DNA of 64,000 bases, taken from assembly GCA_044892525.1 (NCBI GenBank), contig CM097888.1, forward strand, positions 71,424,001-71,488,000, written 5' to 3'. The notes under the pieces are model-generated. The model worked only from the letters and a program-made list of their open reading frames with translations, was not told where the DNA came from and did no database searches. Of the stretch, positions 1 to 47,799 are shown piece by piece. Each line of letters starts with the position of its first letter. The stretch's first letter is position 1. The position numbers were made by a program, and so were the translations under genes. Source of the DNA: Schmidtea polychroa. Lineage: Eukaryota.

Positions 1-273
1 CCAAGCGGATTAAATAAATAATCAGTTTCATCGACATAGAATTTCTCTCACAAACAGTAATCTCTTCCTTTTCCTTGTGCGAAATCTGGGTTGATTGATT
101 TATCTTCTTATAATTAAAGCCCCGAAAGGGTACGAGAATCCATCGCGTAGTAGAACTTGTCCTGACTGGTAAACCCTTATTTTTGTCTATGATCAGTACA
201 GTATGAATGTAGTCAGGTGGTGACGCTCCCGCTGATTTAATTATTTTCATTTTCTTTTTCACAGTCGCTCAAA

Positions 274-1023
274 ATGTTGCCAAATTCCAAGCCCGTTCTT
301 CGACCTTGTTTTTCTTGCTCCGACAAGAATTCAATTATCAAAGAGCTCCAGGCCCAAATTGGCAAGCACAAAAGAAGGATAGATGAGTTAGAGGGGACAT
401 GGTTTAGTCCCACCCAGATGAAGGAGGCTCAGAAGAAGCTGCACCGAAGCGAGCACTGTAGAGACGCGTTGATTTCCGAGAGTCGGGCGCAGAGGAGCCT
501 GATAAAAGAGCAGTCGGAGGCGCTGCACAAATTGTACGTCCAGGCCGCAACTACAAGGAAGATCGCGAAGATCCCGATTAACGAAGCCAGTAACCTTTTC
601 CCAGCACATCATGATATCTCTGGCGGGTCTTCTCCTCCAGTCGGAAAGTCCTGCCATGGGTGCGTAGAGACCGAGCTCTCACCTAAAGGACCAGAAATCA
701 TCTTTACCGGAACCAGTAAAGTGCTACCTGCGATAGCATCCACCTCAGCAGCACCCTCGACCAACCAAACAGCATCGAAGCCAAAGCGTCGACAATTATC
801 GAGAGCAGAACGAAAGAAAAAACAGCGGGAACGCATAACCGCCAAACAGAACCAGCAATCGTCGGATCATCCAATCAAAGTCATCAACCCCCCTGCAGCA
901 ATCGATTTAGCACCAGTGATCTCAGGGCGAATCATCTCCGCCGCTGGTGTTACCTGGGAGGAAAACGCCTCTGAGTTTTTCGATTTGGAAGATCTATTGG
1001 CAGACTCGGAGTGGGAGAAATGA
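274..1023 (+). CDS. Uncharacterised 249-aa LTR-borne protein (CxxC, coiled coil, second CxxC, basic segment, acidic/aromatic C-terminus)
   Basis: Open frame with a homolog at 38322-39034 that differs mostly at synonymous sites. Predicted 5'UTR intron 169-264 (CTG|GTAAAC...TTTTTCACAG|); AATAAA about 135 nt after the stop. Confidence 0.8.
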   Translation: MLPNSKPVLRPCFSCSDKNSIIKELQAQIGKHKRRIDELEGTWFSPTQMKEAQKKLHRSEHCRDALISESRAQRSLIKEQSEALHKLYVQAATTRKIAKIPINEASNLFPAHHDISGGSSPPVGKSCHGCVETELSPKGPEIIFTGTSKVLPAIASTSAAPSTNQTASKPKRRQLSRAERKKKQRERITAKQNQQSSDHPIKVINPPAAIDLAPVISGRIISAAGVTWEENASEFFDLEDLLADSEWEK

Positions 1024-1314
1024 GAACTTCCCCGTAAAAAGTCTTCGTTCTCTGAATTGACCTGAACATTGTCTGATAACATTTTACCTTGTCTCTTTTC
1101 CCGTTGTCGTGAACTTTATTGTATAGGTGTTAGATATATTTGTGTGATAATCTTAATAATAAACCATTTTTGTCTGCATACGTTCTTTTTGTGTTCATCT
1201 TAAGACAGTTGAGTTGAAATTGGTAAATGGTATTGAGAGTCATAAAATTATGAGGAGCATTAGTCAGTTGGTAAACTCAGCTAGAAATATTGCGATGGGG
1301 CGACGGAATGAGTA

Positions 1315-1587
1315 GACGTAAGTCCTTCTATCGGCAGTCAGGGTTGGGAAGTCGAGGCCTCAGTAAGGAGTAGTCCGAAGGAGCTGGCTCACCTGCTTAC
1401 TGGCGTCTCGCCGGCATAGCACAGTTCCAACGTGAAGCAATTCACGGGTGCTATGTTGGAGTGTAAGTTATGTACGGGTCCCGCTCGGCGATGACCAAAT
1501 AAATGACGGGCGAAATCGAGGTGGGCATTCATCCTCTAGACTAAAGCTGCACTAGAAAGGGGTCATCCGAGTAGTGTACCCGCAACA
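1315..1587 (+). ncRNA. Conserved structured RNA motif, copy A (class unknown)
   Basis: GAC-GTAA-GTC hairpin; CAGTAAG/CTTACTG helix; CATAGCAC(1415-22)/GTGCTATG(1448-55) helix enclosing CGTGAA-GCAA-TTCACG. Covaries with copies B, C and D. Confidence 0.55.
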
Positions 1588-2401
1588 TACCTATTATAAT
1601 AGCTGGAGATGAATACATAGTTAACAATCTTAACATGAATATTATAATTATTATAGTAAGCTGTTTTGAATTCGGGTTTTAGGGGTACCAGATATATGAA
1701 CCGCACAGAGCGCAATAATGCCTTGTTACGGCCCTGCGTTCAAATAATATTTTAATGACTAATTCGTAAAAGCATCAGTAACTAATTAAAAAAATCCACA
1801 TAAAAATAATTTAAATAAATATTGGCTTTTACTTTTTTTATAACAAACATAAAGATTTGTTAATAGTGCTCTTTGTTCTATTATTTTTAGACTAAACTGA
1901 CAAGCTGAATTGCAGATGTTTATATTTACAAATCTTTAAAATTTATCAATAGCGGAATTATATACCAACTTTACCGTCATGAGACAGGTAAGTTTTACAC
2001 TACTATATAAAATGTCATTACAAAGGTAATTCTGCTCAGTACTATAGGAACGGTAGATTCAGATCACTGGTAAATATGGTTAATAGAAAGGTCATAAATA
2101 CGAAGCTACTAAATCCGAAAAATTAAAACCAAAACTTCTAAGATTGAATCTCGCCCAGACTTCAAGATAAAGAGGATAATGTGTTATTTAATGGCTCGTC
2201 CATTGGATGTGGCTTAGTCATAATAATATATTCGACATCTTCACCATTTTCGGTTTTACTGGTTAAAAGGAAAGGTTAGTAGAGTGAAAAATTATAGAGA
2301 TCCGTATTTATATAACCTCACAAAACAGAAATTTAAATATTCATTTTTCAAATATAGCAAATAATCAGTTAAAACAATCAAATTAAAATTTATATTTTTA
2401 A

Positions 2402-10587: not shown

Positions 10588-12310
10588 CATGGCCCCATTA
10601 ACCATAGGGTTAATTGGGCTACAGCCCAGGGGCGCCATCGATCCGAGGGCGCTAAGAAAACAAGATAGTGAAATTTAATTACTTTTTTTTAATTTAAAAA
10701 AAAGTAATTTTCTTTATATTTAGCGTATCTGTGATTTACGTTAGTAATGTGTTCAATGTTATATTTTTTCTCATCCATATAAACCATGTATTTTTAAATT
10801 TTATTGAAAATGTTGGTCATAAAAGTGAAGAAATGGAAAAATGCGTAATAGGACTCTTAGAAAAATACGGAATTGATTTAGAAGATTAATGCTCAAATAT
10901 GTCAGGAATTTATAGCGGACTTCAGGCACGAATAAAGTTAAAAAATAATTTGGCTATTTATGTACCATGTGCACCCCATTCACTGAATTTAATAGGTGAG
11001 TGTGCTGCAGAAAGTTGTTTGGAAGCCACGAAGTTATTTTTTTTCGTTCAGAGTGTATATAATTTTTTCGCTGCTTCAACTGGGCGTTGGGAAATATTGA
11101 AACGTCGCTTATCTGTGAAATATAAGATGCCAAAATCACTGAGCAGCACTCGATGGTCTGCACGTGCCGAATCCGTTCATGCTTTAGTTCTCGGATATGA
11201 ATATTTTAAGCATGCTCTTAATGATATATTTACAGATTTAACACAGAAATGTTCCACTAGAATTGAAGCAGAAGGTTTGGAAAAGCAGTTCAATTCTCTC
11301 GAAACTGGTTTTATGCTTTCATTTTGGAATGATATTCTGGAAACCATGAATAAAATTAATGTTAGCCTCCAGAAAGTTGAAATCGAAATTGAAACAGTGG
11401 TTAAATTATACACTTCATTGGAAACATATATTGAAGAACGTCGAAATATAGATTCATTTAATTATTACAAAAAGAAAGGAGAAAATCTATCGGGTTGTTT
11501 TGAATTTAAAACTGCAGGAACTGTTAAAAGAAAAAAGCAGTTCGATAAAGGGACATCAGCCGACACACAATGTGATAAAAATAGTAATTTCTGTATAAAT
11601 ATTTTTTATGTAATTATTGATAAACTTTTGGCAGAAATAAAAAAACGGAAATCTGCATATGATCGCATTGCCACTAAATTTGGAATTTTAATGAATTTAA
11701 AACATTTCGACAAAAATATGATACGAGAAAAAGCAACTATTTTATATAAAGAATACCCAGATGATCTTGAAAATGGTCTAATCGAGGAATGTTTACATTT
11801 TAAACTTGTAAATTCAATATCGGATAACTTAGCAGCATTATCTAAATCTGAGCAAATTTTAAGAACAATAATTGAATCGCAAATTGAATGCACTTTTCCG
11901 AAAGTAACAACAGCTCTACGAATATATTTAAGTATCGTCTGTACAAATTGTAGCGGAGAAAGGTCGTTTTCAACTCTCAAGAGAATAAAAAATCATCTAA
12001 GATCATCTTTAGGACAATACAAATTAAATAATTTAAGTATTTTGTCAAAAGAAGCGGATATCCTTGAGAAACTGGATCACAAGAAAATTATAGATATATT
12101 TGCTATAAATAAATGCCGCAAAAGACATATTTAAATTAAAAATTAATATTTAATTCACATATTTATATAAATTTTTTGAATTTTGTTTTGCGTAAATACA
12201 TATTTAAGTTTTGAATTTTTGAAAATAAAATTGAATTTTTATAATAAAAGTATGTAGGGGTGCAAAATTTTATTTAGCCCAGGGCGCTCAAACTTATTAA
12301 TACGGCCATG
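10588..12310 (+). mobile_element. Internally deleted hAT element, Tip100/ZMYM1-like (1723 bp)
   Basis: CATGGCC / GGCCATG termini; perfect 8-bp TSD ATGGCTGA. Confidence 0.92.
10899..12134 (+). pseudogene. N-terminally truncated hAT transposase (411-aa open frame)
   Basis: YVPCAPHSLNL (CxxH), STRWSAR, and SGERSFSTLKRIKNHLRS (hAT dimerisation domain); zinc finger and first catalytic Asp region are absent. Confidence 0.88.
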
Positions 12311-24251: not shown

Positions 24252-25260
24252 TGCCAAATGATGAATTCGTTTTTCTCAATTTAGGTAAAATAAGGTAAGA
24301 AAACATAATTCATCTTCCTGAATACCATTACATTTATATAAAAAAACTTAGATAGTACAGAAAATACAATGGCAAAGATATAATGCAGCGATACAATAAA
24401 TTAAATATCAATTAAATGAAAAGAGAAATAATAAATTTATGTTAAAAGGAAATATTATTTACACTAATCAAAAAGATATGTATATTAGAAACAAAAGGAC
24501 GATACATGATAAAGGAAAAACATATATTATTATGCCATGCAGGAGTGGAAAAAGTAATACATTTCCATTAATATTCATTAAATCTAACACGCTATTTCCA
24601 AATCATATATTTAATATAAAATCCGAAAATTTAAACAAAATAACAGTTTAAATATCGTCACTCTCCCCTTCTTTAAGAACTGTGATACTCTTTCAACCAT
24701 TCAATTCTTCTTCATCTTTTCCCATCTGGATATTCTAGCTCAACTTGGTACTCGATTGGAAAACCAAGAATCTTTCCAGGACATTCGAACAAATTATCAT
24801 GTTTTGATCTCTTATGTGGATCCATTTTTACTAGGACTCTTTGACACACCTCAAAATGCCGATAACGCTTCTTATCTACATCCCTTGATCTCATTTTATC
24901 TGCCACTACCATAATATTACTCTGTGCTATCAATAATACTAGTTCTCGATTAAGATCTATGAATGAATTCTTTTCATGTATATTTACCTTTCTTCCAAAT
25001 AGTATTTCCATTGGTGAAAATCTCATAGAATTCTGTGTTATTGAGTTTAGTGAATATTCAATTTTTGGCATAATGTCGTCCAAACACCCTCCAGTTCAAC
25101 CATCACTAAAAAATGTCACGATCATATTACGAACCCTTCATATTACCCGTTCTGCTAGACCATTAGACTAATGATCATATGGTGAAGTAAATATCCATTC
25201 GATGTAAAAATTATCAACTAACTTTTTGATTCGACTTCCCTCGAAAACCTTATATAAATT
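24252..25260 (-). mobile_element. 3' end of a gypsy element: integrase C-terminus, PPT and putative 3' LTR (about 24252-24660)
   Basis: FTSPYDH*SNGLAERV and SPMEILFGR integrase motifs; purine tract AAAGAAGGGGAGAG directly before TGACGA on the minus strand. Confidence 0.75.
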
Positions 25261-30600: not shown

Positions 30601-33600
30601 ATAGTAAAACCTTGAAACAATGACTGGAAATATCATTCAAATACCTTTGTAAGTCAAAATTTCGAAGAAGGATTTTTTCTTGCTCTTTCTGGCTTAATAA
30701 TAAATACCCCCTCTTGAAGAACTGAATATCTACATTTTCTTCTTCTAAATTTACAAATTTATGTTTTACGAAGAATTGACGATGATTTTACACGAATAAC
30801 TTCTGTGGAAATTTAGAATTTAAAACATTTAGAAATAAATATTTTATAAAACAAATGAAACGGAATGTTTCAAGTAAAGTTTATAAAAAGAATAAACTTT
30901 AATGAAATTATCAGAACTTTTTTTTCAGATTTCACCACAGATTTCTTTTCCATTAACATTGTATTTATTAAAATGTTTGACTATGAATCAGTAAATATAT
31001 CGATATTTTTGATATTCACGAATTTTCGGCACCGCCTTTTTCAAATGAATTTGTAAATATCCCAAGTCAAAGCTAAATTTATAAAACTTAAAAATAATGT
31101 AAAAGATCCATTAAATTTATTTAAATCTTAGAAGGATTAAAATTAGTGAAAATAATTTAAAGTTTGATTGTCATTCATGTTGAAAATTGAATATTACAAT
31201 ATCTCGATTGAGTATCAAAATAATGATGCATTAAAAAGACAGTATTAGTAGCAGGGCCGGCCTTCTCCATGAATGGGCCCGGGTGCAAATATATTTTTTT
31301 GGGCCCCTCAACATAAAAAATAATAGTAATACCAACCAGAATTTCATTATATATGTTGGGTTATTTGCAATACATATATACAATGAAATTAAAATCTTTA
31401 TATCACATAAGATTAATAAAATCTTCTTACTTTTAGACTTATTTAAAATAAGTTATTTTTCTATTATTTCGCAACGTATTTCCATTTCAACCTAACAAAA
31501 TTTTTGTTTTCAAATTTATAATAATATAGAAAACATCTGATTGCGATGTCAGCTGCAAACTGACACTGACACTGAAAATGTTGCAAGATAGAACCCTCTA
31601 AGCCAGTGTTTCTCAAACTATGGGTCGCGAAAGAATTTTTGGTGGGTCGCGATGACTTATGGAAAGATCTACAAATATAAATTTTGGAAGTTTAAGCCTT
31701 TTAAATTTATTTATTCTTTGTCATGTGGGTCGCAATAAAATTTTTGGCATGAAATGTCAAAAATTTGGGTCGTGATCAAAAAAGTTTGAGAACCACTGCT
31801 CTAAGCAAGCATATTTAAAATGTTGCACACACGTAAATAAAATGACGTAAATAACGAATGAAATGCGTACAATAAAAAATATCTAATGATTTTTTATACG
31901 TTATTTCTTACTAATTAAAAAAATTTAAAAAAATAAAAAAAATTTAAATAATTTTTTTTGTAAAATATAAAATATAATTTTTTTTCTTATTGGGGGCCCC
32001 TTGTAAAAGTGGAATGAAAATAATTTCCAAATTTAATTCCAGACCAGCATAAAAATTGCCCCAGATATTTTTTCAAAAATTAATAATGTTCTCTGACAAA
32101 AATTTAATAGTTTGCCCGCCCCATTTTAAAATGCAAATTGCACCAATTTTTATTCATTGAGACTAGAAATCTGGTTGTTTTGTTTAACTTTTATTTGTTT
32201 ATTATGCAGCACATATGAAACTTTTGGCTCTCGTGTTATTAGATGTGTTATGGAGATTTCCAATCGTTAGAAACACAGATAAGAATCATCGTCTCTAAGC
32301 ATGGGAAATTAGTTAAAATGTTTTTCCTTTCTTTTTATTATTGTTGTCATTTTCAGAAAAATACATTATTTAGTGAATCTTTATTTTTATTACATATTTA
32401 AATAATTAGATTATTATAAATACCTATAGTATTTATAATAATTATTTAATTGATTTGGCTACATAGCCCTCCTCCGAGATCATGGAGTGATCTATTAGAT
32501 TCTTGGAGATGGGCTGCTTTGAGTTAACCTGCACCATTTTCGGATATATGCCCGCATCCGTGGCCATACGTATTTAGATGATATTAACCTAATCGTCGCG
32601 TTTGCTCCCGGGTGACATATATTTTGGAGCCGCTTAAATTCAATGAACTGGTGGCTCTCTGGCAGGACTATTTGTTGCTGTATTCAAAAGTCTGTAGTCT
32701 CCACAGGGTCGAATCGATCCGTCTTTCTTTCTTCCGATTACCAATGGGATGCCCAGTTGCTTTTACTTTTAACTCATTAAATTCCTTTTCCACCATTTCT
32801 AAATACTTCCCGCTTAGGCGTCAAGCTGATTGTGCAATTGGTGGGCATGCTGTCTCTATCTCCAATGCGTGCTCAAGAAGAACTGAGTTCATTTTTTCAG
32901 GAGCAGTCCTTCCTCTGGCTTCTGTCGTAATTTCAACAATGTAGATCTTTGCATTTCTACAGTCAATCACAAACTTATGGCTTGCTAGAAAATCTGCTCC
33001 TAGAATCGGGCGGTTTATATCTGCCACCACGAAGCTCCATCTAAAGTTGTGCTCTATGTTTGAAATCCTGAAATTTAGCGTCTTCGAACCATACGTTTTG
33101 ATGTTGCAGTTATTGACTGAAACAACCTTAATATGCACGTCTTTAGAATCAGGAGTAAATGCATTCGTTGGGATGACGCTGACATCAGCTCCAGAATCCA
33201 CAAAAATCGGCACAGTGAATATGGCTTGGATTTTTGTCGACTGCTGAGTATTGTCGCGGATCTCTGTCGTCAACATCAATGAGATCCTTGATCTTTTCCA
33301 GCATATGATGACATAGTCCAATGACATGGCTGTTCGCATTTTCGGCATCTTTTCCAAATCTTCTGTGGATTCATTGTTGACAGCTTGTTGTATTGACTGG
33401 ATTTGTTTTTTGATTTTATAGCATTGATTTGATTTTGGAGATTTTCTATTGCCCGTTGACACTGGATTTCGGCTTGTTGTCGATTTTCCACCTGAGATAT
33501 AACATGATTTTCAATGCCCACGTGCAAGTTTGCGATGTTTGCCAGCTCATCAATATCCGCTTCCTTTGACACAAATATCAGGATCTGGCTCGTTTGTGTG

Positions 33601-36600
33601 TTTCCATTCAGTTCCATTAGTTTACGCTTGAGTTCCCTGAGCAATTGAATTGGTTTTTGGTCACCAAATTCTTGTTTCTGCAGCAATTTGTTGGCAGCCT
33701 CTGTTGTCGAGCCTTTTGATTCCATGATTATTGCATCTTTTAACGTCGAATACGGCAGTTTGATTTATGAGTCCAATAAAACCGAGTATTCTTCGAGGAT
33801 TCTTGGTGGTAGACTGGTGGGGAGATGAAAATATTTTGATTTTTCATTTTTCATTGATGCCAGCTCGAGTGCAGCGTCAACTTGTTGGAACCACGCTACT
33901 ACGTTGTCGAAGAAAATCGGTATCTTCATCTGGATGTGACTACTTTCATGAGCCACACTTCTGACACCAATGTTGTCATTTTCAGAATACATTATTTAGA
34001 AACAACACATTTTTAGAATTTGTGAATCTTTATTTTTATTACATATTTAAACATATTTATTACCTAGTATTTATAATAATTATTTAATTGATTTGGCTAC
34101 AATTATTAATCAGATCTCATATGAATATTTGTAAATATCCTAATTTATATGTTCAAAAATTAACAAGAATAAACATAGACTTCTTAAAGTGCAAAAAAAT
34201 TTAAAAGGTTATTAAATTTATAAAATTAGTAAAATTCAATTAAATATAACAACGTTGACGTTACTCTCAGTGACCAGTGAGTCGTAACTCGGATCACACA
34301 AGGTATCTCAATTAGTAGTATAAACGCCTTATTAACCATTCGTACATCAAGAAGAATGGATTAAATTTTTTCGTCACGCACCAAATTTGCTGTCAATTGA
34401 TACATTTTGTAATTGTTCTATTAAATATAATTTTTTGATAAAGGTAAATTTTAAGACATAATTTAAATTATTAATCTATGGTCATTAAAAAAATAAAACA
34501 TGAAATAAAGGACATTGTTCAGATTCCTATGCGAACCTCTATACAAATAATTAAGATAGGATTTATTAGCCTTTTTGAATCCCAAATGAAGGACTATATA
34601 AATTCGATGCAAATAAGTTTTTCCCGGACCTAAGATATTACGCTACTAGCACCACAAACTGATTGCAATGGAACTATTGGAAATTAGAACAGATCAAAAT
34701 TAAGACGAGTTTCATTTTAATCCTCTTGTTTCAACATCTATATAATGAAAACAGTTCTAAACTGTAGTTTTTTTCTATGCAGCAAAAATATGATCCATTG
34801 AAAAATGCAATGTAAGGATTTTCTAAACCAATGATTAATTCAAATCTGTAGATCTGCATTTACATTGCCACCATTACTTTTATAATTTCCTGAAGTAAAT
34901 CAGTGGATTTAGTATCTTGTATAATAGCCATAATTTCTCAAGCAATATATTTAGATTGACAACTCTATGGGTCAACATGATCCTCATAAAATCCCTTCGG
35001 AGAAGTAATAATCACCCAATGAACTTTCTATCGAGCTCGTGACAGTCGTCCTTCACGCAATCGCACTTTGCATATTCTTCCATTAACACCAATGCGTTTA
35101 ATTTCTTTGTTTTTTGTTCAGTGACATGTGATAAAAGTATGTCTAAAAAGATTACGTTGCTTTCGTAATTTTACTGGTTTAAGTAAATATTCTTGTATGT
35201 ATTTTAGACAAGCATTAAATACTTTACAAGCACTGCAGTTTTCAATGGTTGAAAAGTGAGTTTTTCAACGATGTATTCATTTACTTTCATTACAATACTT
35301 ATTTTGTTTCTGTGCTTATCAGAAAAGCAGTTGCAGCTGCAAAATCAACACTTTAAAGGGTGTAATCCATGATTGGGAGCACATTTGATTAACTGTAAAA
35401 AAAGAAGTAATTTTCTGTCAGGATAATTTAAGACACGAAACAATTTTAATTTTTAAAGATTTTTTTATTAATATTAATTTAAGTTTAAAGTCCCTTCAAC
35501 TAAACGGATTTAGCACATCGAAAAGCTTAATTAAGGCCGCGAAATTAGTGCCACCACTATATTTGAATATATTTTATGTGTATTGAAAGTATTGGTAAAA
35601 TCTAACTAAGTCATTATTAAATGGTGCTTTTTATCTGCAAAAATTTATTAAAGCGCGTATAACACAGTATAGATGTGTTGGGCTGAGTCGAAGACTTAAT
35701 TGTTAAAAAATAGGAAAATAAGAAAGCAGGACGTTAAAGGAAAATAAAAATAAAATAAACGAAATTAAGAATAAAATAGAAATAAGAAATAAGAGAAACA
35801 ATAATTAGAACATAAGAATTAAAACAAAATAAAAATAAGAAAAATTAAAATAAGACAATAGAATGACGAACAAAATACTGAAAAATGCAACAAATAATGA
35901 GAAAATTAAAGAAATAAATAAAAAAAAATATAATAAAAATAAGAAAGGAAGAAAAAATAACCAGAAAACAGGAAAAAATAAATTAAATTAAGAAAATAAG
36001 CGGTACTCAATTCTGATTGGTCCGCATACATTCAAAAATACTATATAAGCAAACATAAAAATCATAAACATACCGTTAATTTCAATATTCAATAGGTAAG
36101 CAAATTTATTAGAAAGACCGTTAATTTCAACATTCAATAGTTAACTCAAACACTTTACCAACGACAACAACTACTTACAGAAAACTACGAGGAACCGAGA
36201 CAACATTTGAGAACTATCCAGATTTACAGCGAACAGCCTAATTTTCAGGAACATTCGATTTGAATTTTTGACTCAGCTCAGCATCTAGTATATTGGTAAG
36301 CCGAACTTTTATTTAGAATTTTAGTTTACATTAAAGTAATTATGAAGGCTGAATTATAGTAAATTCTTTATTAAACAACTCTTCATTTGATTCCACATTT
36401 AGTAATTTTTAATGTTTAACAAAATTTACATGTCTGAATATCACAGAATTAATAAATGATTTTTATCTAGATTTCTATGTTTTATTATTTGCATTAAATC
36501 TTTTATGAATTTTTATTTGTTGAGTAACGTGGAGTTGAGATACTCCATGTCATGGTGTGAGGTGCCTTCGGGAGCTCAGCCGGTGGACATGGAGTATTTC

Positions 36601-39600
36601 AATCACGCAGCTAGATTGGGCCGAAATGTGAAGGCTTCTTCACGGGTCCAATTGCTGAAGATGCGTCTAAATTATAGAAACCGAGTATTCTAGAAAAATG
36701 ATAGCCAGACAGTGATCGACAGGACAGATGTATAACTGAATGAAAGTATTTTTGAGGATTTGCGCAGTGATTGAGGGCGTCACATTACAACTTCATTTAG
36801 TCGTTTTCATGAGCTTTACAACATCTAGGTCAGCCGAAAGAAATCCATGCAACTATTCAGTAAATTCGTAAAAATTTAGTGTCGCCTCATAGTGTACATC
36901 ATCTGAAAAACATAGTTCTACCAAATTAAGCATTGCAACTTCTATTTTCCGAACTCCGTAACAATAGTTTAGAATAAAATTTTGTCGTCGTACACTCAAT
37001 TTCTATAAGTCTGTCCAGAATGTATATTATATTAAAACTCCAAAATATTATTAAATTCCAGAAAATTAACTAATTTAAAAAGAATTATAAAAATATAAAA
37101 TACCACAAAAATCCATCTGATGACATTTATTTTTCACAAAGAAAGCCAGCTCATCACCATGTCTACCCAAATTTCCGAATATATAATGTCTGGGGAAAAA
37201 ATTGTGAAAGGATAAGAGTAAATTTCATGGAGACATTATTCCATCTGAATAAGAAAATCTGAGTTTAGGGTAGCGTAGAGAGTAAATTTCCAATAAATTT
37301 CCAAACGATGGTGATGGTTCACACGAGTTGATGATGATAAAAATTCCACGATGAGACCTGACAGTAGCATGGATTATAATTCCGGTGAACCACTTTTCAG
37401 TAAAAACCATGCGACATCAGGAACGACAAAATCTCTGTGGAAATGGCACATACCAAGCAAATGAGATAAGATAGCAGTAACAGCACACGAGAGTCCGTAT
37501 GACGGACACACAGAATACTGGATAGGCATGCATAGTGACCACGAGTAATAGTATCTACAGAAGGTAGATAATGCAATCAATTAGTCATCATCCGTAGTAG
37601 CGAATTTTAACCTATGTCGTGCCCGATGAAATTTTCCGTCTCTGCGAGATAATGTAAAGTAAGCGTGTTAGGATAACAGCTGACGTGAGATCATTACACA
37701 TATGTTGAAAATTTTCCAGACGTTCTCTCAGATAAAGAGTAGTTATTGCAGATAACAAGATTAACTGTCAAATCAGCAGAGTACATTTACCAGTAAATCG
37801 CGAACTAAAATAGGTTGAAGGATAGTGATGGTTTCACACTAGTTATTTTAACGAAATGTATGTATTTTCGATAAATTAAAATAAATATTCTACCAAAATT
37901 CTGATTGAGTATCATAATATCATTGTTACTAAAGCGTTAGTATATTACATTATCAGTGTCATAACTATAATATTATTAACCATTACAAACCCTCAAGTGT
38001 AACATTAGACTAGTAGAATATAACAGGGGGAAGATTTTTTGAGAAAGTGATCAGCGCCGATATAGTGTAACGAGTGAGTGAAAGGGAATTCAGTGGAAAT
38101 CACATACCCTTATTTAAAGAATTTCGGGAACAAGAATCAATTGCATTCGTCAAGTCAATGACCTCTAATTAAACAAAATTTTTCTGTAAATAAGAACTGT
38201 AGTAGAACCGGACCGTAAAATGGGTTTTTCTTCTTTTCATCTGTCAAGTAGCCCGTTGGTCGTATTTAATTTGTTTTTAAACTTGCATATTCTACATTTC
38301 AATCTTACCGTTACAGTGATCATGATGCCAACTGCCAAGCCCGTGTTACGTCCTTGCTTCTCATGCTCGGATAAAAACGCCATTATCAAGGACCTGCAGA
38401 CCCAGGGACTTGGTTTAGCCCCGCTCAGATGAGAGAGACCCAGAAAAAGCTCTATCGCAGCGAACATTGTCGGGACGCTTTGATCTCCGAAAGCCGTTCC
38501 CAAAGAAGCCTGATAAAGGAGCAGTCCGAAGCACTGCATAAAGTTTATTTGCAGGCAGCGACCACTAGGAAAATAGTGAAAATCCCAATCAGTGACGCCG
38601 ATAACCTCTTTCCGGCACACCATGATACTTCCTCAGCATCGTCGCCTCCTGCTAAGAAGTCGTGTAGCGGGTGTGTAGAGACACAGCTCTCGCCAAAACA
38701 ACCCGACATCATCTTCGTGGGAACAAGTCAAGCGCCTCCTGTGATAGCTTCTGTATCCACTGCACCGCAATCTAGCGCATCGACATCAAAGCCAAAGCGT
38801 CGGCAGTTATCCCGAGCCGAACGCAAAAGGAAACAGCGTGAGCGAATGACCGCCAAGCAGAACGTACAACCAACGGAGCTCATAAATGAAGCCAGTGTTC
38901 CTTCGGCAACAACGGATCCAACGTCAGGGGTCTCCGGGCGGATTATTTCTGCTGCGGGAGTGACTTGGGAGGAGAATGCCTCCGAGTTTTTCGATTAAGA
39001 GGAGCTGTTAGCAGCTACAGAGTGGGAGAAATGAGAAGGCTCCCGTAGGATAGTCCTGTTGTATGGCAAACAGTTGAACTAAAAAAAAATCATCGAGTTT
39101 TTCTTAATTATCTTTCTCGTCTTGATGTTTTCTGTTGTATGTAACCCATAAATGTTGTATATGTTCAATACAAATAATAATATATAATCTTGAGTTTCTT
39201 CATTGTTTTATGTGTGATAGGTTTGGTATGACAATAATGATAAGGGTGGAAAGTTCTCGAGATTCTAGAAATATTAGTCAGCCGCATTTCAACCAAAGGT
39301 AGAAAGGTGAAGTCAGAGTTTGATTTAGACGTAAGTCCTTCTATCGGCAGTCGAGAGTGGGAAGTCGAGGCCTCAGTAAGGAGTAGTCCTAAGTAGGGGC
39401 TCACCTGCTTACTGGTGTCTCGCCAGCATGGTGCAGCACCAACGTGAAGCAATTCACGGGTACCATGTTGGATGGCAGGTTATGTGGGGTTCTGCTCAGG
39501 GTTGACAAAGCAACGGCAAGTATAATCGTAATGGACACTCATCTCCTAGACTGAAGTGGGATTATTGGTAGTCAACCGAGTAACACCCCAGCAGATGCAA

Positions 39601-41040
39601 TAAAGAAACTCTAATGCATAGTGTTGCATAAGTGTAACAAAACGCCGAGCCATTGTGTCTTCATATTATTCTCATAGATATACACTTGATATTGACATTT
39701 AAAAATCATTTTTGAATTTGGAAAAATCATGCATTTAAGTGTTAATAAATTTTTATTGTTATTGTCGACATTTTAAAATTTTTCAGTGAATATTTGCATC
39801 TTTACAGTTTGTGATAATTTTTAACCGTTTAAATTGCTTATGCGGTTGCGGACGGTAGGCTAGCACTGCTGGCCATGAATTTTGTTCCAGACGTTCAACA
39901 ATGTGCTGGCCAAACTTCAAGATAATCATACCACAATATCATGCATTCGTATACTAAAATATTTTATGCTAAAAAATAATATATATTAAAATTAATTTCG
40001 TTCGCAAACGGTTAATAATTTTTCAATTCAGACAATGCAATGAAAATAATACAGTTGAAGAAATCGTTAACTCTCACTAAAACAAATACTTAAATTGTCA
40101 TTCGAAGTACATATGTCATGAAATTTACAAAGGATTTCCCATTTGAAATTTCTAAATTTCCATAAGTCGCAATATGACTTGTTATGACTTCATTGATGTT
40201 ACAGATTTTCTTATTTTGAAAGCATCAAGTCTGTTCAGCAATTTTAAAGAAATGTAAATGAATATGAAATAAATTGACAAAAGAAACCAAAAGTTGGCAA
40301 GTAGTAAGCTAGTACATATATCTAAAAATTTATAGTACATATATATAAAGGGTATCCATAAAGTTCCTGTGTAATTAAAATACATGTAACTATGTAATAA
40401 CGTTATAGAAAGGATCTGTAAAAACCCAAAAAAAGAAAACACTTAACATTTTCATAAATGTCAGCAATCACATCAGTTATCCTATTTTGCAAATCAAAAC
40501 TAAATACTTCAAGCTTTCTAAACCTTTTTACAGATTCTTTCTATCTAATATGGTTACTTTTTCATTGATAAAAAAAATATAAAGATTCATTCACAAATCA
40601 GTCTCCCACTTAACTGAAATAAATTCAATCAATTAATTAAGTTTATAAATTATTTACTCTTTATAATAATATACTAAGTACAATTAATAGAAAAATCAAA
40701 TATCACCTCCAATGGAAAAATATTTCCCCAAATTTGAAATGACTTCAGTGGCGAAGAGGGACATCTGAATGTTTTCTTGAACTGAGAATTGCAATCGAAG
40801 GCCGCCAACACTGAGAACAGTTGAGCACTGTTTATAATAAAGATCTTTCTCAACAACTAAAATCTTTAATTTTGGATTCTCTTTTTTCAACCAATATGCT
40901 GACGAATACCCAATGATTCCTCCGCCAATTATAGCGATGTCGGATTCTACATCGACTGTTGTCGACATGGAGCACAATAGTTTAGAATTGACATATTTGT
41001 TCAAATTTTGAGATAAAATCTTAAAACTTCTTGTTAGCAT
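27634..41040 (-). CDS. FOXRED1: FAD-dependent oxidoreductase / complex I assembly factor, 436 aa; exons 41040-40707, 30744-30645, 30597-30503, 30461-30322, 30279-30134, 30094-29959, 27993-27634
   Basis: Exons total 1311 nt in frame. Motifs IIGGGIIG, STVLSVGGLRLQFS, EGWFDPW, VINASGCW, KRYVY, SAWAGYYDYNT.DQN and GSSGHGIQ. Intron 1 is 9962 bp. Confidence 0.93.
28590..28880 (+). mobile_element. Mariner transposase remnant in FOXRED1 intron 6
   Basis: FDDNFLKVLIDQN and FLDKIVTVDKK*IT resemble the mariner FL.RIVTGDEKW motif; many stops. Confidence 0.5.
30950..31055. repeat. Dispersed hairpin-MITE family, copy 1
   Basis: Shares GACTATGAATCAGTAA / TTCACGAATTTTCGGCAC with 50278-50395 and 53861-53982. 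Confidence 0.6.
31252..32010 (+). mobile_element. Tip100-like hAT non-autonomous fragment
   Basis: CAGGGCCGGCC left end with GGGCCC subterminal boxes; right TIR not found. Confidence 0.4.
31604..31798. mobile_element. Buster-type hAT MITE (195 bp)
   Basis: CAGTGTTTCTCAAACT / AGTTTGAGAACCACTG; perfect TSD CTCTAAGC. Confidence 0.92.
32342..34101 (-). mobile_element. Miniature internally deleted gypsy LTR retrotransposon (1760 bp) in FOXRED1 intron 1
   Basis: LTRs 33971-34101 and 32342-32463 (TGTAGCC...GACAACA) with 5-bp TSD ATTAT. PPT GGAGGAGGG, gag fragments, protease FVDSGADVSVIP, RT start KKDGSIRPCGDYRLLN and integrase zinc finger HPG..T....YVWP.M. Confidence 0.92.
33956..33969 (-). promoter_or_regulatory. 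Primer-binding site complementary to the tRNA-Leu 3' end
   Basis: TGGTGTCAGAAGTG 1 nt after the 5' LTR; complementary to CACUUCUGACACCA (tRNA-Leu end as recalled). Confidence 0.8.
36534..36666 (+). ncRNA. Second structured domain (E) in unit B
   Basis: 18-bp helix 36534-36551/36586-36603 enclosing a CC-TTCG-GG hairpin, then ATTGGGCC/GGTCCAAT around GTGAAG-GCTT-CTTCAC. Confidence 0.45.
38322..39034 (+). pseudogene. Disrupted paralog of the 249-aa LTR-borne ORF
   Basis: KPVLRPCFSCSDKN, RSEHCRDALISESR, KPKRRQLSRAERK and GRIISAAGVTWEENASEFFD are conserved. A 37-nt deletion causes a frameshift near 38405, and there is a premature TAA at 38996-38998. Predicted 5'UTR intron 38215-38316. Confidence 0.88.
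39328..39593 (+). ncRNA. Conserved structured RNA motif, copy B
   Basis: Same layout as copy A, with CATGGTGC(39427-34)/GTACCATG(39460-67) replacing CATAGCAC/GTGCTATG. Confidence 0.55.
39825..40011. mobile_element. piggyBac-like MITE (187 bp)
   Basis: TTAA-CCGTTT...AAACGG-TTAA; internal homology to 55562-55693. Confidence 0.72.
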
Positions 41041-42193: not shown

Positions 42194-45100
42194 CAGTGGC
42201 GTATCTAGGGTTCACGGCGCCCGGGATAAAACTTAATTTTTTCTTTTCCTTATTATTGGTATATTATTTTTGCACTAAAGTGACATTTCTTTTTTAAGAA
42301 AAAAAAATTATTATTTAAAAAAAATCAAAAATTTTCACTCTTTAAAATTGATTTGCAGCAGTTTTAAAAAAAATTAATTTAATTTTGCAACAAGTTAGTT
42401 TTAAACTTTATTTATTGTAATAATTTACAAACAAATTTTTCGTGCTTTAACACTTGCGAACTTGTCAATGACATCATCAAAGTTAATTTTGTTCACAGTG
42501 TTTTTCTCAATACTTAATAATGCCAAATTATTTAAACGTTCTTCACTCATTGTTGCTCGAAGATATGACAAAATTAATTTTAATTTGCTAAAGGAACGCT
42601 CGCATGTTGAAACAGAAATACCAATTGTCAAAAGAATTTGCAATGAAATTCTTAAATTTGGGAAAACATCTTCACCATAAGATATTAAAAATTTTAAAAG
42701 ATCTATGTGATTTTGGAATTTCATCTTTTCGAGCATTAAGAAGCATTTTACAGTCAGTAACTTCATTGCATAGTTCGTTTTCATCAATATCTGAATTGTA
42801 AAATTTTCCCAAATTTGAACATTTTTCTTTTAATTTAGCAGGATCATGGCAATTTAGAAAATTTTCAGTGTCAAGGAAATATCCAAAATTTTCATTCAAT
42901 GAATTAAGGCCAGTAAATCGAGTTTTTAATTCTTGAATTAATCTATCAACTGAGCATTTCAACACACAATCTAACTCTTGTTCAGCAGTCAAACCAGAAT
43001 CAGTCATTTTTTCACCTAATCTAATTTTTATACGTCGCACTCTTTTCTTTATTTCAACGCCCCATTCAAAACACTTTTTTTTACCTGCTTCAATTGATTG
43101 AATGCATAGATCTTCAAGAAATTGCTGCATATGTATGCTTAATCCTTGTAAATCATCGGAGGCATCTTTAAAATTAATTTTTGGATCTTGCATTCGTTTT
43201 TGTACACGATCAATTTTCTCGAGAACGTGATGCCAAAAATTTATCAAAACCAGAAAATTAAAATTCAATATATTTTGCAATAAATTGTATGATTCGCTTC
43301 TTGTGTCAGATGTTTGATTGAAATCATCAGAAAGATCTTCAATTAATTTCACAAGATTGTCGATTCCAATAAAAATTTCTTTTACAGCTTCTGCTCGTGC
43401 ACTCCATCGTGTGGTTGATTCACGTTTTACAGTCAAAGGAATGACATCGGTTAATTTTTGCCAACGATTGGTTGATCTTGAAAAAAATAAATAAATTTGT
43501 TCAATTACACCAAAAAATGTTAGCATTATGGGATTAGTTTGAACAGAATGTAATCCTGCAAGATTTAAACTATGATTATCGCAGTTAATAAACACTGCGC
43601 GAGGGTTCAATTTGGTAATTCTTTGTTGCAATCCAGAAACATGACCAGCCATAACTGCCGCATTATCATAACATTGCGATCGACAGTCCGAGAGTTGTAA
43701 TCCATCAGTTTGTAATAATTTGAGTATAGTATTTTTAAGAGCTTCGGCATCTTTTTCAGCTAGCTCAATAAATCCCAGAAATGATTCCTTAATTTCCACT
43801 GTTTTTTTTATCAAAATCTATTTCAACGTGACAAATAACTTCTGAAAATTGTTCACGATGTTGTAAATCTGGAGTAGAATCAAATATCATGCCAAAGTAT
43901 TTGCTTTTTTTAATATTTTCAATCAAAACATTTCGAACTATTAAAGCTAAAAGGTGAATAAACTCATTTTGTATGCCTGGTGATAAATAAGATGTTGTTC
44001 CTGGATGTAAACGAGAATGTTCCATGTGACTTGCCAAAAGTGGATCATATTGCGCAATCAATTGTAAGAGACCCAGAAAATTACCTGGATTGCCTTCTGT
44101 ATTCAACAAATTTTCATTATAACCACGTAATGCTAAATTATGAAATGCTAAGAATTTTATGCATGAAAGAAATCTTTTTAAAATTTCTCTCCATCGATCT
44201 TTTTCCAACAATATTTGAGCTTGAACTTCCATATCGAATCCAGCACCTTGAGACAATCTTCGTTCAGTTTCTTTCCATGTTGTAAAATTCTGACGGTGTA
44301 TAATATTATTTTCATGATCATTTACTCCTTCTGAATGCTTAAAATCTCTAAAACCAGCCGGTGAAAAAAATGCAGTTTTACAAAAATCATTATAAAATAA
44401 CAAACAACAAAAGCAGAAAAGTGTTTCTTTATGAGGCGAATAAATTAACCAAGATCGATTAACATATATACCAAGGGTGGGCACGCATGGGTTCAATAAG
44501 AGCCATTTTCCGAAAATTTATTTTTTACAGAGCCACCATAGTAAAGTACATATTTTTTTTTATTTCATTAATTTGATTAAAGAGACTTAAACGCTATTAA
44601 AAAAAACAAAATAATTATTTCAAACATTAAGTAACAAACATAAAAATCCATTAATAAAAAGTAATAAAATTTCTTGAATTAACGAAGACTTTTGGTCAAA
44701 TCTTTGAAATTTGGTGTATACTTTGTTAAAGCTGTTCGCAGCAATTCTGTAAGATGCTGATTGGTCAACTATGAACGATATTTCGACTTTACGAACTTCA
44801 TTGTGGAGTACAAAGATTCACAACAATATGTTGTACAAAAAATTGAAATTAGACGGCAAGCAGCTTGTTTTAAGTGTGGATATTTTGCCTCTGGTACGAG
44901 TTTCCAAAATTCAACTATAGAAGTAGATTTATGGTGCATTTGCAAAGCCTGGTCCTCTTTCATATCTAATAACTCCAATTCCCCAACCGCTTTTTTAACA
45001 AGTATTACTTCAGAAATTGGAAATCCATCTTCAATAATATCACAAATAAATGGGTTCACAAAAAATGCAAATGTAGATTTATAACTTTTCAAATCTTCAA

Positions 45101-47799
45101 ACCTACATTTGAAATCCGCTTGCAATTCTTCCAATTTTTCACTGTATTCGTTTACTTTTTCTTCTGTAATATCAATTATATTAGCTTTTATTCGTTGAAA
45201 ATGATTAAATATTTTCGACCTAAGATCGTTCACAAAAAGCCGAAGTTTAGCTTCAAAACTAAATAACGTTTGTGACAAATCAATAATTATCTTTTCTTTT
45301 CCTTGTAAAGCCAAATTTAATGTTTGCAAATGTTCCATAATGTCTGTAAGGAACATTAAGTCAGAAAGCCAAGTTTCATTTTCTAATTCTGGGTATGCTA
45401 TTCCGTTTTATATTATGATAGGATTTAGGAGTTCCACAAAACGGTTCAAAACATTGTAAGTTGACAGCCATCTAACAATACACCATAAGGAGACATCATT
45501 AGGCAAATCATCTGTTTCGTCATTTAATCTTAATTCTTCCAAAAAGTTTTTAAATTGACGATGTGTTTTGGCATTTGTTCTAATTAAATTCACAATCTTC
45601 AAAACAATCTTCCACACATTTTCGTATTTAAAGTACTTCGCTATGAGATGCTCGCGATGAATTATGCAGTGAAGAGATAAAAAGTGAGGAATATTAGGAT
45701 CTCTGTTTAAAAGACCAATGAGACCTTGATTTTTCCCCATCATTGCAGGCGCTCCGTCTGTCGCAACACTTACAAGTTTGTCACGAGCCAATTCGAACCT
45801 GTCCATAACTACATCAAGCGCAGTTTTGACATCGATACCGCGAGTTGTTTCGAGAAGAGCTACTAGGTCTAACATTTCTTCCTTCACTTTTACGTCAGAA
45901 GATACAAAGCGGACAAAAACGGCTAATTGTGGAACATCCTGAATGTCAGTAGACTCGTCGAGAGCTAAACTGAATGCTGTACAATTTTTTAAATCACACA
46001 TCAAATTATTTTCAACATTTTCGCTAATTTGGCCAATTCGACGCTCAGTTGTACGACGTGAAATAGGAATACGTGAGATCAATTTATGTAGTTTTGAGTT
46101 GTCCGGATCCAAAACTTTAATCACTTCTTCCAAGTTTCTCTTAATAAATTCACCTTCTCCATATGGACGTTTAGCACGAGCTATATTCCAAGCTATCAAA
46201 AAACTAGCTTCGTAGGCACTGTCATCTTCTCGACTAAAAGTAGATAATAGTCCTTGTTATGCTTGAAGCCCTGATTGCAATGACTTATGTTTTTCTGTCC
46301 GCAAGTTTGAATTGAGTGGATATTGAATTGATAAGTGTGGATGACTTACTTCATAGTGTCGACGTAAATTGGTTACTTTGTAGTTGGAAATTGTACCTTT
46401 ACAAATAAGAAAAAAACTTTTCTGTCCATTCTTCTTGAAAAGTTCTATTTTCTTGTCTGTATTTTCGTTTTTTGATGTTTTCTGATGTCATTATAATAAT
46501 AAATTTAAATAACTATATCGCTGAAATTTAAACAAAATAATAAAAAGACATTAATTTAATTTTAATTAGTTTAAAATTTTAAAATGCTTCATAAAAAAAT
46601 CTTCTTACCAAATTTTTCAAAAAACACGAATAGAAAACTATACTAAAATATACAAACGACCGCAATCTTGTACAAACAAAATAATAACCAATCAAAATTC
46701 ACTAAATTTATTTTTGATGCTTCTCTCTCGTTGTTATAACAAAGCCCCGCCTACTACAAAATAATTTTAAAAAGCAGTAAAATGTGAAAAACAATGTTTC
46801 GTTAATTTTTGACATTTATGAAAATACAATTGCAACAAAAAATTTTTTCTCAAAACATTTAGTGAAAAATTTCAAAATAAAAAATCGAATTCGATTATCA
46901 AGAATTCAATTATCAATGAGCCGCAGTTTACTCAACGAAGAGCCGCATTTGCCCACCGTTGATATATACCGTTTGCCAACTTCTTCTTAAACCATGATGA
47001 TGTAATTGAACGTCCATTATGCACTGCAAAGCTTCCTTTATTATTTTGAAATAAACTCGGGCCACGTAAAATGACTTCAGTTCTTAGTTTTTGTGAAACT
47101 ATTGGACTGAATTAATGAAAACTTTCTTGAAATTCCAAATATACAAAATCATTGAACAAAAGCAGATTCGGAATATTTTCTGAAATTGTTGAAAGACATG
47201 ATCTATTGTTGGATTCAGTCATTTCATAATCAAAATCCGACTCTTCATTGTTTTGTGAGGCATCAAAATCAAAAAATTCATAATCTGACTGCGGCATATG
47301 TTTGTCTTCTTTAATATCCTCTATCTGGTCATTTTCTTCAACTTTTTCCTTTTTTAAATAATTTTGCAACATTTGACTTGACTTTTTAGCTTCATTTCGG
47401 AATATTCTGGCCTTTTTACGATTTTGTGCGCCACTTAATTTCGGTTTCGGCATCTTTGATATTCTAAAGTTTGAAAGTTTTTTCAAATAATTTTGAGCTT
47501 AACAAATAATTCTATAAATCTTACGATTGAGTTCTGGATATAACTCAAATTTCATGTATTTTGGAAAGGCTTTGAAATATATAAACAAAGTTCACCATAA
47601 AATTTAAATTAAATTTAAATTTTATGGTGAACTTTGTTTATATATTTCAAATAATCAAAATTCGTTATTTTAATGTTGGTTAAATTTCAAAATCGAAAAT
47701 CTTTAAATAAAGTTTAGGTTTCAAAAATCAATTTGGCGCCCCTAAAATCGTGGCGCCCGGGGCAAATGCCCCGCTTGCCCGGCCCTAGATACGCTACTG
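42194..47799 (-). mobile_element. hAT element, Tip100/ZMYM1-like, near full length but frameshifted and interrupted
   Basis: 17-bp TIR CAGT(G/A)GCGTATCTAGGG and perfect TSD AATGTAAC. Transposase pieces at 47112-47486, ~46970-47100, 43789-44471, 42672-43814 and 42425-42787: FCFCC, DSTPD, YDNAAVMAG, CDNHSLNL, TRWSAR, CERSFSKLK. Confidence 0.93.
44472..46961 (-). mobile_element. Buster/SPIN (GTF2IRD2-like) hAT element (2490 bp) nested in the Tip100-like element
   Basis: TIR CAA(G/C)GGTGGGCA and perfect TSD ATATATAC. ORFs 45408-46199 (FSLALDESTD, TDGAPAM, HCIIHRE, VRWLS) and 44769-45356 (TTYCCESLYS). Confidence 0.92.

Follow-up and report, generated by a model that had tools for sequence, protein, structure and literature searches.

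Near the start of the 64,000-nt window (the whole stretch of DNA that was analyzed), an open reading frame (ORF) lies inside a long terminal repeat (LTR), and a second copy of this LTR lies further along the same strand. This raises the question of what such a gene encodes, how it is expressed from within a repeat, and what it does for the element that carries it. A sequence-only reading had taken it for an accessory gene of an invertebrate LTR element, and our results agree, as the ORF is under selection and has no gag, pol, env, or host match. The two LTR copies and their ORFs are as follows.

1..1587 (+): 3′-terminal 1,587 nt of the 3′ LTR (copy A; 4,146 nt in full), ending in CA, delimited by comparing the LTR pair
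1588..1591 (+): target-site duplication (TSD) TACC (4 bp), from flank comparison and empty-site contigs
274..1023 (+): ORF of 249 aa in the 3′ LTR of copy A, with a CxxC, a predicted coiled-coil dimer, a linker with a second CxxC, a basic segment, and an acidic tail
35676..39593 (+): copy B, a solo LTR of 3,918 nt with TG..CA ends and GATG on both sides, from LTR ends and flank comparison
38322..39034 (+): ORF of copy B, broken, with a 37-nt gap relative to copy A near its start and a stop at 38996–38998

The host element

Copy A belongs to a full-length element of 30,338 bp (G000:C4:71395250-71425587), of which it forms the 3′ LTR. The 5′ and 3′ LTRs of this element, ~4,146 nt each, are 99.98% identical, have TG..CA ends, and are bordered by TACC on both sides; the host element is young. 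TG..CA ends with TSDs had been expected for both copies and were found for both, with TSDs of 4 bp (TACC for A, GATG for B). The earlier placement of the gene in solo LTRs holds for copy B but not for copy A. Six of 10 further elements also had 4-bp TSDs. A primer-binding site (TGGGGGCTCAGCCGGGAT), which we take to resemble tRNA-Pro, lies 7 nt 3′ of the 5′ LTR, and the polypurine-tract position before the 3′ LTR holds a conserved 16-mer that is not purine-rich.

The interior contains a 4,732-codon frame encoding gag, CCHC knuckles, a viral fusion-glycoprotein domain (PF24664, E 6.5e-70, in frame between gag and protease), protease, reverse transcriptase (RT), RNase H, integrase, and ankyrin repeats (Ank_2 was also matched in Pfam). 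The order of protease, RT, RNase H, and integrase is that of Gypsy/Ty3 elements. A MATH/TRAF domain (PF21355, Pfam) lies in an ORF separate from the polyprotein.

As far as the passages seen of PMC6431247 describe them, planarian Burro elements have this layout, with a total length above 30 kb and a single polyprotein frame of ~4,900–5,100 aa. Our element resembles these Burro/GYPSM1 giant gypsy elements of dugesiid planarians in its length of >30 kb, LTRs, ~4,700-aa frame, gag, CCHC knuckles, env-like fusion domain before the protease, protease-RT-RNase H-integrase order, ankyrin repeats, and accessory ORFs. Unlike in that description, RING and MATH here form their own ORF after pol, and a Pfam search of the element’s 8 frames gave no BIR or BCL2 match at E ≤ 0.01.

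Several smaller ORFs accompany the polyprotein. A RING ORF (167 aa) lies 5′ of gag (G000:C4:71399704-71400204), and the region 3′ of pol (G000:C4:71416947-71421206) holds the RING+MATH ORF (478 aa) along with unknown ORFs of 368, 253, and 219 aa, two of them coiled-coil-like and one with two hydrophobic stretches. An AG closely precedes the starts of the RING and TRAF ORFs, a hint of spliced subgenomic RNAs. At three places in the genome (G000:C4:69859134-69912450, C4:46237401-46290506, and C2:37328963-37384126), three LTR copies follow each other at ~26–27 kb steps, representing either tandem LTR-sharing elements or assembly duplicates.

Copies, selection, and allele structure

Searching the genome with the ORF gave 7,178 first-look candidates, many of them same-strand pairs ~26 kb apart; the 150 that were scored had 72–100% identity and were mostly stop-free. 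For unbiased sampling, elements were instead chosen by their RT (104 scored matches, 99–100% identical), and the expected 3′ LTR region was taken for 60 of them. The ORF was present in 57 of these 60 elements and open to the tail in 50, with 7 broken and 3 without a match. The open copies fall into five allele classes with 64–81% protein identity.

Pairwise pN was 0.10–0.24 and pS 0.48–0.91. Omega was 0.09–0.15 for the three unsaturated pairs and 0.156 in a codon model of 48 distinct sequences. In the other reading frames, the omega-type ratio was 0.9–3.0, with the exception of the antisense frame that shares third positions (0.10–0.26). The LTR ORF is under strong purifying selection across many copies, as had been claimed from the two copies in the window, and its omega of 0.16 is far from a dN/dS of 1. 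The count behind that claim, 9 of 14 codons silently different between A and B in RSEHCRDALISESR, was also right. It is hardly credible, then, that the ORF is non-functional: this reading is contradicted by an omega of 0.16 with frame controls and by the 50 of 60 open frames, as well as by the conserved acceptor, start, and stop and the exact intron-less copy described below.

Solo LTRs with a matching TSD were found at 8 of 20 loci, and all 8 were stop-free, although these were top tblastn matches and hence biased toward intact copies. The earlier idea that the gene survives in solo LTRs is borne out by these eight TSD-bounded copies but not by copy B, where the 37-nt gap near the start breaks the frame and a stop follows. 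Across 14 copies, private changes numbered 31 silent and 32 replacement vs. 51 and 23 for shared changes, with changes before and after insertion mixed. Older copies have decayed by stops and frameshifts.

These observations bear on the idea that the protein targets the host cell or other elements residing in it, affecting survival, stem-cell state, or exclusion, and sits in the LTR only for high expression. The RING, RING+MATH, and ankyrin cargo of the same element and the open frames kept in solo LTRs would suit such a role, as would a report, as cited in the part of PMC13465017 seen, that a Burro1 IAP protects stem cells. Still, we find this role improbable, as the protein has no host-like domain and the decay of older copies is what would be expected if selection acted only during element replication.

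The same genome contains a second family of LTR genes (L141–L154), with ~35–45% identity, the ORF at the same LTR position, and the same LTR layout. Two of its members, L148 and L149, form a pair 26.5 kb apart with a primer-binding site. Many copies in this family are broken, and the second CxxC is often CxxH.

Within the main family, the LTRs and the backbone differ in apparent age. Between copy A and L037 or L043, 70% or 75% of four-fold sites differ in the ORF, respectively, vs. 3% or 5% in RT-RNase H. Meanwhile, the 5′ and 3′ LTRs of a single element are 99.8–100% identical in 9 of 10 elements, one giving no match. Saturated ORF sites, low RT divergence, and near-identical LTR pairs together indicate that old LTR alleles ride on young, near-identical backbones. 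U3 identity between alleles is 74–85%, with the CCAAT and TATA boxes fixed. Some LTRs are mosaics (L037 vs. L040 and L075 vs. L079), with ends that are 96–98% identical and a mid intron 2 that is unalignable. Deliberate synonymous recoding was ruled out, because four-fold differences were not above the saturation expectation.

The protein could also be an anti-silencing factor that counters PIWI/piRNA or chromatin repression, with divergent alleles persisting by escaping small-RNA recognition. This would fit the saturated, mosaic LTR alleles on near-identical pol, and the part of PMC8532177 seen describes BURRO1 as de-repressed upon SMEDWI-2 loss. However, selection is purifying (omega 0.16) rather than diversifying, four-fold divergence stays within the saturation expectation, and pol, a possible piRNA target too, is homogeneous. 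We therefore regard an anti-silencing role as unlikely.

Gene layout within the LTR

The features that define the gene and its surroundings are listed below, first for copy A and then for copy B.

1..264 (+): 3′ end of the ~2.2-kb intron 2, with a pyrimidine tract and acceptor AG at 263–264 (57 of 57 copies; exact junction in L161)
1158..1163 (+): poly(A) signal AATAAA, with a U/GU-rich tract behind it and the putative end of R near 1180
1318..1323 (+): donor-like GTAAGT (D3) at the start of a conserved block in the putative U5; 56 of 60 loci have GTAAG here
1353..1459 (+): structured block 2, a predicted pair of neighboring hairpins in the putative U5 (7 of 36 pairs compensatory; z −2.4)
36019..36049 (+): copy B promoter, ATTGG (inverted CCAAT) and TATATAA
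36096..36140 (+): copy B intron 1, 45 nt, GT..AG, its 3′ end repeating exon 1
36296..38316 (+): copy B intron 2, with donor GTAAGC and acceptor CAG
36528..36660 (+): structured block 1 of copy B, the double hairpin within intron 2

An inverted CCAAT box and a TATA box are common to all classes at LTR ~340–365 (TATA at ~357), and the ORF is at LTR 2833. Two donors are likewise common to all allele classes, D1 at TATA+54..57 and D2 at LTR ~550–690. In copy A, D2 lies at LTR ~626, which is 2.2 kb 5′ of the acceptor and outside the window. A pyrimidine tract and a YAG acceptor occur 1–10 nt before the ATG in 57 of 57 copies, even though the upstream sequence is unalignable. The 5′UTR intron proposed earlier for both copies was thus right in its acceptor (AG at 263–264) but not in its ~100-nt length or its donor at 168/169, where GTAAG occurs in 0 of 57 copies and 35 of 57 lack even GTRAR. 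Across allele classes, AATAAA follows the stop by ~125–180 nt, and the poly(A) site suggested near 1180 is consistent with AATAAA at 1158 and the U/GU-rich tract after it.

From these motifs, we infer that transcription starts ~30 nt past the TATA box and ends after AATAAA. The LTR would then comprise a U3 of ~385 nt, an R of ~3.3 kb, and a U5 of ~400 nt, with the whole gene placed in R because it lies 3′ of the LTR’s own TATA box and 5′ of its poly(A) signal; this assignment draws on motif conservation and one intron-less copy (L161). Each LTR, solo LTRs included, would form a three-exon unit with a short spliced mRNA as its default product. The predicted leader is ATG-free in 43 of 58 LTRs vs. 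3 of 63 intron windows of similar length. Leaders with an ATG belong mostly to one allele class, in which the ATG falls a few bases past the predicted start.

MMTV sag, HIV nef, and foamy virus bet have coding sequence in or overlapping the U3 of the 3′ LTR. The sequence-only reading had drawn a positional analogy to these genes, and the coding sequence here does lie within the LTR. However, the ORF (LTR 2833) is far downstream of the TATA box (LTR ~357) and 5′ of the poly(A) signal, and would therefore belong to R rather than U3. Unlike in sag, nef, and bet, the promoter, both introns, and the poly(A) signal are all inside one LTR. For comparison, the engineered Tto1 redundancy spans nt 172–568 of its LTR in the part of PMC3061985 seen, vs. 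the ~3.3-kb R estimated here.

Two genome-wide patterns for exon 2 adjoining the ORF gave 2 matches and 1 match, with 0 for reversed controls. They identified L161 (G000:C3:38414787-38416660, minus strand), a 1,874-nt LTR with both ends kept and an open ORF (247 aa). This copy is without intron 1, and its intron 2 is missing exactly from GT to AG relative to the closest unspliced allele. The exon–intron boundaries are supported by conservation together with this exactly intron-less copy. The simplest reading of L161 is a single event in which a spliced R was reverse transcribed. One intron-less LTR against the 7,178 first-look candidates suggests that spliced RNA is almost never copied. A further pattern match, L162, was a false positive caused by an inverted LTR start.

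L161 itself is preceded by a short duplicated piece of normal pre-3′-LTR sequence and has TTTG on both sides; no internal element region was found within ~30 kb upstream. Contigs of six runs, which are unrecorded as RNA and contain mostly divergent copies, showed no GT..AG joint when compared with two alleles, an outcome that counts neither for nor against splicing. Defined transcripts from Burro LTRs are said to have been described by Grohme et al. in 2018.

Intron 1 (45–53 nt, GT..AG) lies at LTR ~385–460, corresponding to ~5826–5900 in L036 and to window positions 36070–36140 in copy B. Its 3′ end copies sequence beginning at TATA+23..34 (mostly +27..31) or only slightly past it. Of 58 LTRs, 47 have an exact terminal repeat of 22–33 nt, 2 have an imperfect one, and 9 have none; the repeat unit varies between alleles and families, but its two copies agree inside any one LTR. 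Intron 1 would be regenerated if a strand copied from a spliced 5′ end were transferred onto the second repeat copy; alternatively, slippage between the intron 1 repeats would give the same losses.

Intron 2 contains the candidate structured block 1, two adjacent hairpins at LTR ~844–973 in copy A’s LTR (z −6.0). Its identity between alleles is 72–93% vs. 37–68% for its surroundings; its apical part is nearly invariant, and the intron around it is ~40% identical. Ten of 51 pairs are compensatory, in ten related sequences with non-independent events, and at least as many such pairs arose in 41 of 500 shuffles. Across the alignment, 98% of cells are paired vs. 36–46% when the structure is slid. 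Block 2 sits 3′ of the donor-like GTAAG and is recognizable in the second family. By contrast, block 1 was not found beside a second-family ORF: the four matches of its model among 20 loci all fell in three loci without that ORF, and L149 had no window with z < −2.5. Treating blocks 1 and 2 as one motif was ruled out, since the block-1 model did not find block 2. An Rfam search gave a sub-threshold Xist match only, in an AT-rich stretch, and this was rejected. Foamy viruses are known to control their 5′ poly(A) site in a U1-dependent manner (PMC3694450, seen in part), which offers a lead for D2 or D3.

The protein and its possible role

The motifs named earlier (CxxC, coiled coil, basic segment, and acidic tail) are all present in the 249-aa product of ORF 274–1023. 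A predicted coiled coil spans residues 12–91, a basic segment with 11 K/R in 20 residues spans 168–187, and the protein ends in an acidic ΦxxΦΦ tail. The basic segment is nearly invariant across the five allele classes, and both it and the tail are kept in the distant second family. Seven of eight proteins scanned, from both families, have the ΦxxΦΦ motif, with a tail net charge of −4 to −8, and the eight share no leucine-rich pattern of a CRM1 export signal. AlphaFold places helices at residues 13–40, 46–98, 177–195, and 239–243 with disorder between them (mean pLDDT 64, pTM 0.36).

A homodimer model of residues 8–118 scored 0.52 vs. 0.00 for the best of three controls, with a parallel coiled coil over residues 12–91; runs agreed in at least 77% of contacts, and pLDDT was 79. 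Of 30 solved pairs, 21 reached the dimer mark; none of 23 single chains did (in eukaryotes, 17 of 29 pairs and 0 of 30 single chains; in animals, 7 of 16 pairs), although coiled coils may pass through likeness to solved ones. The protein is predicted to self-associate as a parallel coiled-coil dimer. C12 and C15 fall within the modeled interface, so the two CxxC motifs could share a zinc ion.

Homology searches placed the protein in no known family. There was no match to a captured host gene or to gag, pol, or env in sequence, Pfam, or fold searches, as had been anticipated, and the sequence and fold searches likewise gave no host-family or retroviral-transactivator (Tas, Tax, Tat) homology. 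In Pfam, no family matched the ORF protein at E ≤ 0.05; a weak low-complexity match to REV (E = 0.0013), below the cut-off, appeared in 1 of 26 sequences. In a set of 5.8 billion proteins, 0 of 1,031 candidates passed E ≤ 0.01 among proteins of 136–436 aa. The best ESM Atlas match (0.83) is unnamed, and Foldseek with the pTM 0.36 model found nothing at E ≤ 0.001 in BFVD or PDB. Ten weak homologs (P0001–P0010, E 4e-8 to 6e-4) turned up, all of them gene models without a name, and 9 of these are fusions with unrelated host domains. These distant homologs keep a W-x-x-P kink, the second helix, a P-x-H-H-like motif, and an Arg-rich segment, with the cysteines absent.

We tentatively favor, at somewhat less than even confidence, an RNA-targeted early-to-late switch, Rev/Rex/CERV- or Tat-like, that would enable unspliced full-length RNA. 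By default, the LTR promoter, introns, and poly(A) signal would yield the short spliced mRNA, whereas full-length RNA would need intron retention and read-through of the 5′ poly(A) site. The protein would dimerize via its coiled coil, enter the nucleus, and grip block 1 RNA with its basic helices, while the acidic tail would recruit a host factor favoring intron retention, 5′ poly(A) read-through, or export. The protein’s own mRNA would be without block 1, allowing an early-to-late feedback as with Rev and Rex. What suggests Rev/Rex logic is that the default mRNA would encode a basic, predicted dimeric protein and that the intron removed from it holds a conserved hairpin.

HIV Rev, HTLV Rex, and HERV-K Rec are made from fully spliced RNA, carry a basic motif, and self-associate. 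Judging from L161, the LTR protein would likewise come from a fully spliced mRNA, and it shares the basic motif, predicted self-association, and a candidate structured element in the removed intron. Unlike these proteins, it is without homology and without a conserved export signal, and its gene lies within the putative R. The proposed switch is supported by the rarity of intron-less LTRs, block 1 covariation, the conserved basic segment with its Arg-rich counterpart in the distant homologs, the dimer model, and the CERV precedent. Against it stand the absence of a conserved export signal and the failure to find block 1 by the second-family ORF, despite the kept basic segment and tail. Moreover, block 1 could be a packaging or dimerization signal, and this would be enough to account for how seldom spliced copies occur; the basic segment may be a mere nuclear localization signal.

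The acidic tail would fit a DNA-bound activator equally well. Foamy Tas, HTLV Tax/HBZ, and lentiviral Tat combine a basic segment with an acidic or LxxLL-like activation tail, and the LTR protein resembles them in motif. The transactivator-like nuclear protein proposed earlier therefore fits the basic segment and tail. In this alternative, a DNA-directed transactivator like foamy Tas or HTLV Tax, the dimer would act on U3 or on a host factor there, and the tail would recruit co-activators in positive feedback. The tail motif shared by 7 of 8 scanned proteins from the two families, the predicted coiled-coil dimer plus basic helix, and the 74–85% identical U3 with fixed CCAAT and TATA boxes are consistent with this. 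However, ~75 disordered residues separate the basic helix from the coiled coil, unlike in bZIP proteins. In addition, Foldseek matched no DNA-binding fold in BFVD or PDB, and the distant homologs have an Arg-rich motif of the kind typically used in RNA binding. A DNA-directed transactivator is thus a serious but rather doubtful alternative. There is no homology to Tas, Tax/HBZ, or Tat, and block 1 lies ~460 nt from the predicted transcription start, not at +1 as TAR does in the Tat system.

We give little credence to a structural or packaging helper, a nucleocapsid-like chaperone bridging the blocks in packaging or in a long first strand transfer. It would suit a predicted dimer that tethers a pair of basic helices, the presence of two structured blocks, and a multi-kilobase R that needs copying, but Gag already has CCHC knuckles and the acidic tail would be left unexplained.

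Returning to the RNA-targeted switch, the nearest precedent is CERV of the C. elegans element Cer1, a spliced accessory gene in an LTR element. By the description in the part of PMC10309623 seen, both are spliced accessory genes of gypsy-type elements with no homologs beyond their lineage, and both proteins are predicted multimers with cysteines and a basic NLS. At best, the LTR protein would work like a complex-retrovirus regulator; by the tests run, it is not a member of the Rev, Tas, or sag/nef groups.

A fuller reading is possible but more speculative. The ~3.3-kb R would be a three-exon gene for a dimeric RNA-binding regulator that licenses genomic RNA via a hairpin in its own intron. Saturated alleles would be strand-transferred onto near-clonal pol, intron 1 would be regenerated in reverse transcription via the exon-1 copy, and solo LTRs would be self-contained expression units.

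The element family is already known, and there is a real, if minority, chance that the ORF is already drawn in primary Burro papers. The Burro passages seen (PMC6431247, PMC8532177, PMC11410931, PMC13238120, PMC13465017) describe no LTR-internal gene, though primary Burro figures or supplements may show the ORF; the Burro section text of PMC6431247 mentions neither an ORF nor an intron or structured RNA within the LTR. At the level of titles and listings, the literature on LTR-encoded ORFs and long R regions yielded no whole spliced gene in R. A spliced gene in R would therefore be an LTR layout without a description in the literature searched. Very few regulators resembling Rev or Tat are known from LTR retrotransposons, with CERV the one case found in that literature. 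The gene offers a way to study how a young and very abundant element, reported to benefit stem cells, controls itself. Many solo LTRs may also express the protein or trap host splicing, and 9 of 10 distant homologs are fused to host domains.

The remainder of the window holds other coding remnants. ORFs at 10899–12134, 42425–46001, 47112–47453, and 54782–55105 presumably derive from hAT-type or other DNA transposons, and fragments at 32821–33725 (−) and 24712–25071 (−) are, we assume, gag/protease and integrase C-termini of other LTR elements. We take 51134–53407 to be a long host exon resembling a TPR protein (TTC7-like) and 40696–41040 to be an exon of an FAD-dependent oxidoreductase-like gene.
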